A stretch of 57,870 nt of DNA, taken from Candidatus Margulisiibacteriota bacterium. GTDB lineage: Bacteria > Margulisbacteria > WOR-1 > O2-12-FULL-45-9 > XYB2-FULL-48-7. The stretch covers positions 1 to 57,870 of the forward strand of contig JBAZZV010000010.1 in the NCBI GenBank assembly GCA_041658645.1, given 5' to 3'. Positions 3,368 to 5,119 of this stretch are shown here, one piece after another. Within the stretch, counting starts at the first letter, position 1. Each line of letters begins with the position of its first letter. Made by a program: the position numbers and the translations under genes. The notes under the pieces are model-generated. The model was given only the letters and a program-made list of their open reading frames with translations, was not told the DNA's origin and made no database searches.

Positions 3368-3585
3368 CTGTCCCGACGACATTAGTATATCAAATATGTC
3401 CCGACGGTCATAATGGTCGAATAATAATGGAATCGTCGGGATCCCGGTTCGGCGAAGCCGACATCGGGATAATGTCGGGATCCCGATTTCCGCCGCAGGC
3501 GGAACATCGGGAAATTTTCCGCTGAAACCTGCCGATATATATATGTAGGGAGCCATACCTATCACCGACTGTCGAGACAAGTAAA

Positions 3586-3673: not shown

Positions 3674-4216
3674 TTAATCAACCATAAATCCAATCCGTTT
3701 TTTTGATCTTTCAGTAGGAATTATTAGCGCTCTGATTGCATCAAAAACAATCTTGAATTGTTTGTCATATTTTCCTTCCAGCTCCTCGATCTTTCTTAAA
3801 ACATCTTTATGAGAAGACACCAATTCGCGCAACTTCACAAATGTATTAATTATTAAGATGTTAACTTGTATTGCCCTCTTACTATTTAGAACGGAAGAAA
3901 GCATCGCCACGCCCTGCTCCGTAAAGACATAAGGCAGTCTATAAGAATATTTCAACTCTTTGAGGTGGTCACAAATTGTGACCACCTCCGCTTTTTCCTT
4001 TTTGCTTAATTGGAACATAAATCCCTCCGGGAAACGATCTTGATTCCGTTTAACGGCTTGATTTAAGACCTTAGTTTCAACCTGGTAAAGTTCAGCCAAA
4101 TCTCTGTCAATCATCACTTTTCGCCCTCTTATTAAGTAGATCGCCTTTTCAATCCTTTCCGCTGGAATAATATTTGCCATGAATTCTCCCTCCACAATGT
4201 AAATTAGCGCCCTCAT
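3674..4216 (-). CDS. ORF6N (KilA-N-like) domain protein. Probable start at [23 protein letters not shown] (~4180)
   Basis: [42 protein letters not shown]...[17 protein letters not shown] matches the ORF6N family. The central segment [15 protein letters not shown] appears frame-shifted relative to the family consensus (SQF.TSSW..RR) over a 27-bp palindrome. Confidence 0.7.
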
Positions 4217-4500
4217 CCTTTATTCGCGAAGGAGCTAAAGCAATTGAAAACACGCGGTAAGTAGCGACGACCTCTCCAACTTGAGGTCACAAATTGTGAT
4301 CTCAAGATTTCTGCTTCTTGAGCGCTCAATTTGAACATAAAATCGATTGGGAACCGCTCCAGATTTCTTTTTACTGTTTGAGTTAATACTCTAGTTTTTA
4401 CTCCATATAACTCGGCAAGGTCATTATCTAACATTACTTTTTACTTTCTAATTAAATATATTGCTTTTTCAATCCTCTCCGTTGGGATAATACTTACCAT
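4213..4500 (-). pseudogene. disrupted tandem partial duplicate of the ORF6N gene
   Basis: The minus strand reads [19 protein letters not shown], then a stop. It resumes as [63 protein letters not shown] and then fuses to the start region of the intact copy. A third ~40-bp remnant (LRAQFGTSS) with the same RBS/start motif lies at ~4500-4600. Confidence 0.55.
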
Positions 4501-4864
4501 CAATTCACTCTCCTCATATTAAAGTAGCGCCCGCCTCAACTTGAGGTTCCAAATTGGGCCCTCAAGTTATCACTTACTGGAACCTGCGACTGAACGTCGC
4601 GGCTCCAATTATATTCTTTTTATGCGAGGAAACCGCGAAGTTTATTCGCAGGTTTCCGAGCAATAGTTAGTAGCAATAACACAGTCTCGCCAGGCTGACC
4701 AAAGCCAGATATTTCCGCCCCCAGCAGGAACGCTTGTCCGACACCATCCGTTTCAATCTTCTGATGCTTTTATCTTTTTCTCTATCCGTCATCTCGTTCA
4801 CCACCTTTCATTGTAAACACCGGGGGACTCCCTGATTTGACCCAGGGAGCCCCCGGCGCAGCCA

Positions 4865-5119
4865 TTACGCCACTACCAGCGCGGCTTCCTGCAGGACATT
4901 AAGCAGTTCGCCCAGTTTGTTCTGAAAAACCATGATGCTGGACTTCTCAAACTTGTTATCCGCGACCAGCCGGCTCTCGGTCAGCATTATATAGCGGGTA
5001 TCGTTCTTGGCCGCCCGGACCGACACAAAATAGGTCCGGCGCCCGGCTTTTACCATCCGTTTGAACAACTCTTTGCTTCCGATCGACTCCGTCTTCGTTT
5101 CTGTTTCCATCTCTCTCAC
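4865..5119 (-). CDS. DUF3276 (PUR-alpha-like) family protein
   Basis: ELFKRMVKAGRRTYFVSVRAAKNDTRYIMLTESR resembles the Bacteroidetes-type DUF3276 pattern (RTYFFDVK...YL.ITES). A GC-rich hairpin lies just past the stop (4820-4858). Confidence 0.5.
   Translation of the reverse strand: MREMETETKTESIGSKELFKRMVKAGRRTYFVSVRAAKNDTRYIMLTESRLVADNKFEKSSIMVFQNKLGELLNVLQEAALVVA

Follow-up and report, generated by a model that had tools for sequence, protein, structure and literature searches.

The DNA analysed here, referred to as the window, is a stretch of 57,870 nt from a Candidatus Margulisiibacteriota bacterium (contig JBAZZV010000010.1, assembly GCA_041658645.1). It encodes an ORF6N protein on its minus strand (copy 1, 3674..4180, 168 amino acids), and inside this gene lies a perfect palindrome, P1, with two 13-nt arms around a single centre base. 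By comparison with related genes we found that the palindrome is a 27-bp dyad-symmetric DNA element of ORF6N genes as a family and not the scar of a local duplication. The same comparison indicated that the protein segment at the palindrome is dictated by the symmetry of the DNA, so far that two subfamilies use different reading frames. Our preferred reading, to which we give somewhat less than an even chance, is that the palindrome, as a dyad or a hairpin in the DNA, is recognised by the dimeric product of the gene itself, giving control in cis, and that the hairpin makes the locus prone to rearrangement.

Conservation of the palindrome in the ORF6N family

The family is large. More than 8000 proteins fell below the threshold of the search, and many lineages, uncultured and cultured, have matches. 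Eighty loci encoding relatives were collected from contigs representing one genome per species, and 77 ORF6N genes were scored. The sampled phyla include Omnitrophota, Planctomycetota, Nitrospirota, Verrucomicrobiota, lineages of the candidate phyla radiation (Paceibacterota, Saccharibacteria and others), Bacteroidota and Pseudomonadota. The genomes were picked by their similarity to the intact query, so that decayed or inverted arrangements are under-sampled.

When the palindrome was looked for in the ORF6N genes of the relatives it proved to be family-wide. The best odd palindrome between the motifs FMFQL and YAFTE was found at the same place in 76 of the 77 genes, which in terms of the protein is between the strands formed by FMFQL and YAFTEQG. 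All 13 arm pairs were complementary in 30 genes, 12 of 13 in 26 genes and 11 of 13 in 17 genes. The palindrome was also present in cultured organisms and phages (Legionella, Bacteroides, Butyrivibrio and Sulfuricurvum plasmids; faecal phage contigs).

Synonymous codons were resampled with the protein fixed and with the codon usage of the respective locus. This null gave 7.8 of 13 pairs compared to the observed 12.0 of 13, with p≤0.01 in 74 of the 77 genes, and we therefore concluded that the symmetry is selected at the nucleotide level. In a gap-free alignment 94.7% of the cells were paired, against 69.2% in shuffles (none of 500 reached the observed value) and 29–43% with slid partners; because the sequences are not phylogenetically independent, the shuffle statistics somewhat overstate the significance, a weakness from which the slid-partner control and the synonymous null are free. 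Double-sided, compensatory changes were detected in 11 of the 13 arm pairs. Watson-Crick pairing ranged from 0.82 to 1.00 at positions 2–13 from the centre and fell to 0.41 at position 14, giving the element a sharp end at 13 nt. The outer arms vary freely between genes, the changes always coming in pairs. Positions 2, 3 and 6 are essentially invariant (A:T, C:G and T:A, respectively), and the centre T..CAA-W-TTG..A is near-invariant. The centre base was A in 43 genes, T in 32, C in one and G in none.

Two reading frames over one palindrome

The 76 palindromes are translated in two different ways. Type A (21 of 76 genes, copy 1 among them) reads E-V-V-T-N/I-C-D-H-L, and the centre of the palindrome is here the middle base of a codon for N or I. 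Type B (55 of 76 genes, among them the two further units of the array in the window, copy 2 and remnant 3) reads L-R-S-Q-I/F-V-T-S-S, with the centre as the opening base of a codon for I or F. Both types share the core TCACAAWTTGTGA without any difference. Covariation of the amino acids tracked codon complementarity, with V/H pairing as GTG/CAC, S/V as TCA/TGA, S/A as TCG/CGA, F/G as TTC/GAA and C/G as TGC/GCA. The exclusion of G and C from the centre is not a protein constraint, because a G or C there would lead to S or T in one frame and to L or V in the other, in every case a conservative exchange. Toggling between N and I at the centre saturates only at divergences where synonymous sites also saturate. 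Inversion of the whole palindrome was considered as the origin of the A/T toggling and rejected, since it would give G:T as often as A:C at position 7, where the counts were 0 and 13.

According to the initial annotation the intact gene deviates locally from the family consensus at this place. We found the opposite: EVVT[NI]CDHL is the commonest motif among the 120 best homologues of copy 1, and the apparent deviation arose because copy 1 carries the second reading frame of the same palindrome. With a DNA symmetry that overrides protein sequence across dozens of phyla, the family offers a clean and testable case of a cis element dictating the coding sequence.

The palindrome and its tail as an exchangeable cassette

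Judged from the alignments, the palindrome together with a tail of about 27 nt is an exchangeable module, which near-identical genes have exchanged with one another, which occurs in duplicate within a reading frame and which has stayed behind in orphan form upstream of genes. Proteins that are 91–92% identical elsewhere can bear wholly different cassettes, ELVTNCDRFATLKHSTSL being one member of such a pair. Tandem paralogues were 80–92% identical outside the cassette and 15–67% inside (e.g. locus L044 with four genes and L056 with three). Two cassettes in frame within one protein, sometimes of different types, were found in L069, L072, L073, L084 and P0074.

A scan for palindromes centred on CAAWTTG with at least 10 of 13 pairs yielded 121 in 493 kb, where about 2 were estimated to occur by chance. 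Approximately 35 of the 121 were orphans, most of them 0–110 nt upstream of an ORF6N start codon. Orphans stand immediately before at least 12 other genes and immediately after two. Orphans are stacked upstream of genes in L003 (three to four in a row), L077 (three) and L006 (two), and in L010 and L025 they lie in frame as N-terminal extensions. Orphan arms identical to those of the gene's own palindrome were observed upstream in L010 and L085 and just after the stop codon in L083. Copy 2 and remnant 3 in the window are instances of this recurrent family pattern of orphans and truncations. Annotators should expect stubs like copy 2 and stacked orphan hairpins to recur in this family, and should not dismiss them as assembly noise.

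Two of these loci belong to experimentally tractable organisms. On a conjugative plasmid of Legionella pneumophila (L083) palindromes lie at 4196 and 4909, one of them an additional copy with the same arms just after the ORF6N stop codon, and on Butyrivibrio pCY186 (L085) they lie at 2939 and 3190, one of them an additional copy with the same arms 29 nt before the ORF6N start codon. The ORF6N proteins of these two loci are longer, with 298 and 330 amino acids, respectively, and have an extra C-terminal domain. A further locus, L012 (2460–2960), contains an upstream tandem paralogue that decays with the opposite polarity: the N-terminal part is riddled with stop codons, and the palindrome (13/13) and the C-terminal half are intact.

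The palindrome could be a hairpin-mediated site of recombination or diversification, whose main role would be to let ORF6N genes and silent copies trade the ~54-nt cassette, so diversifying the specificity segment of a defence protein, the orphans being donors or leftovers. The swapped cassettes, the tandem paralogues with homogenised flanks and distinct cassettes, the stacks of two to four different orphans (L003, L006, L077), the different cassettes in tandem and in frame in one protein and the truncations 0–36 nt beyond the palindrome in the window are all consistent with such a site. However, no recombinase was associated with the genes among 117 neighbours, and the stacked orphans are without flanking homology usable by gene conversion. 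Exchange at the shared centre predicts non-palindromic hybrid sites, and none was seen among the 121 sites. The breakpoints lie at no fixed position, and the invariant centre and the sharp limit at 13 nt are left unexplained. We consider a recombination site unlikely, though not far-fetched. The suggestion made at first, that the palindrome is the breakpoint or hotspot behind the duplications, stood in so far as truncations, orphans and in-frame duplications end 0–36 nt past the palindrome in many loci; the breakpoints themselves lie away from it, at a different place in each unit, which means that the palindrome is not a precise crossover site.

The ~54-nt cassette of palindrome and tail might also be a self-contained specificity unit, at once the DNA target and the code for the sole hypervariable segment of the protein acting on that target, which we regard as a doubtful reading. 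If it were true, reader and target could never be separated by recombination and would be exchanged together between genes. The second frame would then be a frozen record that the DNA, and not the peptide, is conserved, and the family would offer a previously undescribed route to orthogonal self-recognising DNA-protein pairs in an anti-phage family.

Palindrome acting as DNA or as RNA

A hairpin in the mRNA was also considered, in which a 12–13-bp stem in the transcript would control translation, decay or processing, possibly via a protein recognising the CAAWUUG loop. The predicted stem is strong (z about −6) and covarying, the loop is conserved, and many orphans lie in the would-be 5' leader, as expected for such an element. 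The mismatches do not fit: at positions 4–13, read on the sense strand, 15 were G-T and 20 were A-C, and no wobble bias was found on either strand; at position 7 alone the mismatches were A:C in 13 cases and G:T in none. Because G-T and A-C mismatches were about equally common, the palindrome probably acts as DNA and not as RNA. Furthermore, the complementarity extends into positions 1–2, which are unable to pair in a hairpin, and orphans are also located after stop codons and between unrelated genes. Searches against Rfam gave no match at gathering score in the whole window and nothing meaningful at E≤10, so that no known RNA family and no covariance model for a structured RNA matched the palindrome. 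An mRNA hairpin appears improbable to us.

A few other assignments were tried and rejected. P1 and P2 (3962–3998 and 4280–4316, + strand) score as antisense intrinsic terminators with a T-rich stretch. Across the family, the A count in the 9 nt upstream was 3.41 compared to 3.44 in the synonymous null, and only 18 of 76 genes had five or more A; thus the family-wide features of an intrinsic (Rho-independent) terminator were lacking. The T-tract beside P1 and P2 is present because a K/E-rich peptide is coded there, and it is not enriched in the family. In the window, the antisense P1 and P2 terminators could, from their sequence, stop read-through from maf. No tRNA or tmRNA attachment site was found in the window, and an association with mobile elements was dismissed since the 117 neighbours were not enriched in integrases or transposases.

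The array in the window

The array consists, as had been described before, of three units that are each built around a 13-1-13 palindrome. The palindromes have 13/13, 12/13 and 11/13 pairs and are given here without strand. P1, GAGGTGGTCACAA-A-TTGTGACCACCTC, occupies 3962..3988, one base to the right of the 3961–3987 originally given for this perfect 27-bp palindrome, and codes for E65–L73 of copy 1 (type A, EVVTICDHL). In 100 shuffled versions of the window no match with three or fewer mismatches turned up. The start codon of copy 1 and a Shine-Dalgarno-like GGAGGGAG were read from the sequence at 4177..4193 (minus strand) and are homologous to 4497–4513 of copy 2. The copy 1 protein, defined by open reading frame and translation, has its ORF6N domain at the N-terminus, followed by a long helix in the C-terminal part and by a conserved tail, ...IGF. 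It belongs to Pfam ORF6N (PF10543) with 110.4 bits (E=5e-32, profile positions 2–86 of 86, gathering cutoff 27.8) and is a 100% match to P0001 from a Ca. Margulisiibacteriota metagenome-assembled genome. At its C-terminus (window 3677–3700), after a proline-rich linker, the family ends in a near-invariant (K/R)xIGF, with G164 invariant and F165 conserved in at least 90% in the family alignments; this motif may be a short docking peptide.

Copy 2 (4213..4500, minus strand) is a truncated N-terminal ORF6N paralogue of cassette type B (LRSQFVTSS), recognised from its translation and from the Pfam ORF6N profile (89.0 bits, E=2.6e-25, positions 2–75 of 86), which it matches above the 27.8 cutoff in truncated form. 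It has its own ATG and a ribosome-binding site (RBS) similar to that of copy 1, and in the window strain an in-frame TAA at 4441–4443. Its palindrome P2, CTTGAGGTCACAAATTGTGATCTCAAG, at 4280..4306 has 12/13 pairs, the exception being A:C at position 7 from the centre. The cassette tail (4259..4279, minus strand) codes for W-R-G-R-R-Y-L according to repeat alignment and translation, and homology to the family stops at ~4250, after ...GRRYLPRVF, approx. 36 nt beyond P2. Remnant 3 (approx. 4522..4571, minus strand) is an orphan type B cassette that reads NLRAQFGTSS*GGRY. It comprises the palindrome P3 and a tail of ~18–24 nt, and lacks the N-terminal coding part. P3, CTTGAGGTTCCAAATTGGGCCCTCAAG, at 4540..4566 has 11/13 pairs; extended to 15-1-15 (4538–4568) it is 87% complementary.

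The alignment of the units extended past the palindromes, with 70% identity over 214 nt (4004–4217 with 4324–4537) and 75% over 44 nt (4268–4311 with 4528–4571), as the initial annotation required. The start and RBS motif, thought to be re-used by each unit, is shared by copy 1 and copy 2 only (4177–4193, 4497–4513), as remnant 3 has no start codon. The three palindromes are the only copies in the window and all lie at the ORF6N locus. Folded as single-stranded DNA they reached −13.7 kcal/mol (P1, z −6.4), −8.0 (P2) and −9.7 (P3).

Age of the array and comparison of strains

The array was 100% identical to the window in three independent assemblies (L087, L088 and L089, from two ENA samples and one Logan run). 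A co-occurring sister strain (L081/L082) has the same three units and the same flanking genes, with a copy 1 protein that is 90% identical. On the basis of these sequences, the array is not an assembly artefact; it is real and old, and predates the split of the strains. An empty site was sought among relatives, and every contig with the same DUF3276 neighbour carried the array.

The nucleotide divergence of copy 1 between window and sister strain is ~9%, and no substitution was found in the arms of P1 and P2; P2 is unchanged in its whole length. The centre base of P1 and P3 differs between the strains (T vs A), and P3 in L081 is TTTGAGGTTCCAAATTGGAACCTCAAG with 12/13 pairs (11/13 in the window). 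In copy 2 of L081 there is CAA in place of TAA, which leaves a frame of 95 codons open, and a gene for 107 aa with a match to ORF6N was called over it at 874–1197; the stop codon in copy 2 of the window is recent, since the sister strain has CAA and an open frame there. The ratio of nonsynonymous to synonymous differences (pN/pS, window vs L081) was 0.20 in copy 1 and 0.46 in copy 2, and the neighbouring DUF3276 gene had 0.10. Synonymous divergence (window 3674–5119 vs L081) was 0.24 for copy 1, 0.13 for copy 2 and 0.05 for the DUF3276 gene, i.e. 3–5 times higher in ORF6N, which suggests faster evolution of the ORF6N segment or allelic exchange.

In the initial annotation the array was explained by recent tandem duplications of one gene, triggered at the palindrome and followed by progressive decay of the upstream copies. 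The head-to-tail units do share leader, RBS and N-terminal coding part, copy 2 does contain a nonsense codon and the third unit is a stub. Nevertheless, copy 2 and the remnant are of another cassette type, LRSQFVTSS, one frame over, and copy 2 is only 70% identical to copy 1. Although its nucleotide sequence differs by 30% from that of copy 1, it retains 89 bits against ORF6N; in the sister strain its frame is open (95 codons, pN/pS 0.46), and the array is older than the strain split. We regard local duplication and decay as quite improbable, and largely refuted by the cassette types.

Template-switch correction of quasi-palindromes is an established mutational mechanism, and a functionless palindrome that perpetuates itself in this way, a change in one arm being copied onto the other by intrastrand template switching during replication, would fit the orphans that stay symmetric in non-coding DNA with decayed flanks and the 12/13 and 11/13 pairs of P3 in the two strains, but it is very improbable given the exact limit of 13 nt, the invariant centre, the same position in both frames across dozens of phyla, the maintenance of the palindrome at the cost of forcing the protein sequence, and the absence of arm substitutions in P1 and P2 in a gene with ~9% divergence.

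Candidate reader of the palindrome and genomic context

The genomic context of the family is variable: 117 neighbouring genes of ~60 loci fell into 140 Pfam families. Restriction-modification genes were represented by ResIII (4), Methylase_S (3) and N6_Mtase (2). No enrichment of recombinases, integrases or transposases was detected among the 117 neighbours and no integrase is located next to the array in the window. Integrases were observed near a few plasmid ORF6N loci. Because the neighbours vary to this extent, the only constant partner of the site is the product of the gene itself or universal host machinery.

The AlphaFold2 model of the copy 1 protein (pLDDT, predicted local distance difference test, 78.7) places residues 65–73 at the junction of helices 60–69 and 71–78, between two strands of the ORF6N domain. 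The domain is followed by a 37-residue helix that, from the model, probably has a role in dimerisation. The protein matched the PADLOC profile PDLC04856 of PDC-S05 along its full length with E=3.8e-60 (residues 1–159 on profile positions 1–168 of 177) and thus belongs to this family of candidate anti-phage defence genes; it also matched PHROG families annotated as 'anti-repressor'. One PDC-S05 representative cut the plating of T7 and T5 ~1000-fold (preprint 10.1101/2024.09.26.614923). The tested representative was described as RhuM-like, its equivalence to the copy 1 subfamily being an assumption, and the palindrome is not mentioned in that preprint (10.1101/2024.09.26.614923). A mechanism for PDC-S05 is lacking so far, and the palindrome offers an experimental handle, as synonymous recoding would part the DNA element from the protein. 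Of 11 papers in which ORF6N was found to be mentioned, none linked the family with a palindrome, and no paper joining KilA-N and a palindrome was found. The palindrome is an element without description in the literature found or in Rfam; its kind, the intragenic cis element, is itself known.

That the palindrome might be a binding site embedded in the coding sequence had been raised at the outset, and from the alignments a cis site is the best-supported reading. In the mechanism that we propose the element would act at the level of DNA. It could be bound as a dyad in duplex form, or a hairpin or cruciform could be extruded and recognised by its conserved tip. We lean towards the extruded form because the distal arms are free in sequence yet strictly paired. 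The reader would be the ORF6N protein itself, with its KilA-N-type ORF6N DNA-binding domain and the long, probably dimerising helix, since no other factor accompanies the site without exception in all phyla and contexts. An invariant 16-residue segment, the conserved and presumably DNA-reading part of the protein, would fit the invariant tip of the site. Binding could then control the candidate defence gene in cis, and the hairpin-forming sequence would render the locus prone to rearrangement. In the window the outcome would be a type A gene that is still live, stacked head to tail with a truncated paralogue and an orphan cassette, both of type B. The array would thus be the wreckage of gene turnover at a hairpin-prone locus, and not a series of decaying duplicates of copy 1.

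Several observations weigh against this mechanism. The presumed reader of the site was arrived at by elimination, and a plain duplex operator would need no symmetric distal arms. Type A peptides are acidic and helical, type B peptides basic and loop-like; as the two are chemically unrelated, the encoded peptide is probably not the reader of the arms. The arms of orphans are usually unlike those of the following gene and only ~15% of the genes have an orphan, so that orphans are not an obligatory operator. In L037 the palindrome of an ORF6N gene was lost and the reading frame is intact. No solved relative of the ORF6N protein was found in the PDB by sequence, and the best Foldseek match (E=0.77) had only a MerR-like architecture. 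Finally, template-switch correction could mimic covariation without selection.

Comparison with known systems

Binding sites inside the gene of the binding protein are known from the lambda ori iterons in gene O, parS in spo0J/parB and pac in terS. As in these cases, the ORF6N site is dyad-symmetric and lies inside the coding sequence of a DNA-binding protein, the peptide tolerating what the DNA dictates. In contrast to them, it is a single site instead of an iteron array, falls within the DNA-binding domain and not in a linker, has arms that covary freely among homologues and is read in two frames, and no replication, partition or packaging genes were present among the ORF6N neighbours. Most ORF6N genes are single-site and without adjoining replication genes, unlike an initiator with iterons of the lambda O type.

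Another palindrome with the same centre, GGTGACAAWTTGTCACC, was found in pairs 30–57 nt apart (L258 587–660; L317 5130–5203; L305 6116–6162). In the viral contigs L258 and L317 the repeats are inside a 249-aa gene and are translated as a repeated INGDKLSPF. The adjoining 483-aa gene appears to encode a DnaB-type helicase, as read from its sequence without a profile search. The pairs look like origin iterons inside a lambda-O-like initiator gene, another case of a site in its own gene.

Auxiliary operators within genes are known as well (lac O2 in lacZ and gal OI in galE). They too are palindromes in a coding region, and they work together with an upstream site; several ORF6N genes (L010, L085) have a palindrome with identical arms 216–251 bp upstream. 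Most ORF6N genes differ in being without an upstream partner. Where there is a partner, its arms are usually not the same, and it lies at a variable distance of 216 to 350 bp.

Integron attC sites are likewise set by hairpin structure and not by sequence, with covarying stems, short conserved motifs and cassette arrays. They differ in that attC is imperfect with extrahelical bases, has its motifs at the base of the stem, is intergenic and needs IntI, whereas the ORF6N stems are perfect or near perfect, free of bulges and carry the motif at the tip; nor did we find integrase enrichment or an integrase at the array in the window. The REP palindromes (repetitive extragenic palindromes) are also short, with a conserved motif and covarying stems, and surround the gene of a protein, RAYT, that is thought to act on them. 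REPs, however, lie scattered between genes in hundreds of copies, and RAYT belongs to the HUH Y1 transposases, whereas in the window there are three copies, all at one locus, and the associated gene encodes a KilA-N-type ORF6N protein. The palindrome also differs from a core site of a tyrosine recombinase (dif, lox or FRT type) in its symmetric centre, CAA-W-TTG, in the absence of hybrids among the 121 sites and in having no associated recombinase.

Further palindromes and repeats

The 17-nt core GGTCACAAWTTGTGACC was present in 118 IMG/VR viral contigs (58 distinct; L090–L207), in 75 of which (47 distinct) it lay outside any ORF6N gene. Four control palindromes occurred in 1, 16, 21 and at least 120 contigs, a spread too wide to support an enrichment of the core in viral contigs. 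The sites outside ORF6N genes were mostly intergenic, and about half had A and T tracts on their two sides, as bidirectional terminators do.

Between the maf stop codon and the maf terminator (window 3380–3540) we observed a cluster of short repeats built on GTCGGGATCCCGA and ACATCGGGA, which looks like a small mobile or structured repeat. It gave no Rfam match, and no more good copies were found within the window. The sister strain L081 has a 60-nt insertion of this repeat family (…GCGGGATCCCGAC…GTCGGGA) just upstream of remnant 3, at ~window 4590–4600 (alignment columns 538–597). Upstream of the array (window 4581–4654) there is a 22-nt inverted repeat, AACCTGCGACTGAACGTCGCGG / CCGCGAAGTTTATTCGCAGGTT, with 86% complementarity and 30 nt between the arms, which in Rfam matched only miRNA models at chance level. 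The 60-nt insertion of L081 falls within the first arm of this inverted repeat.

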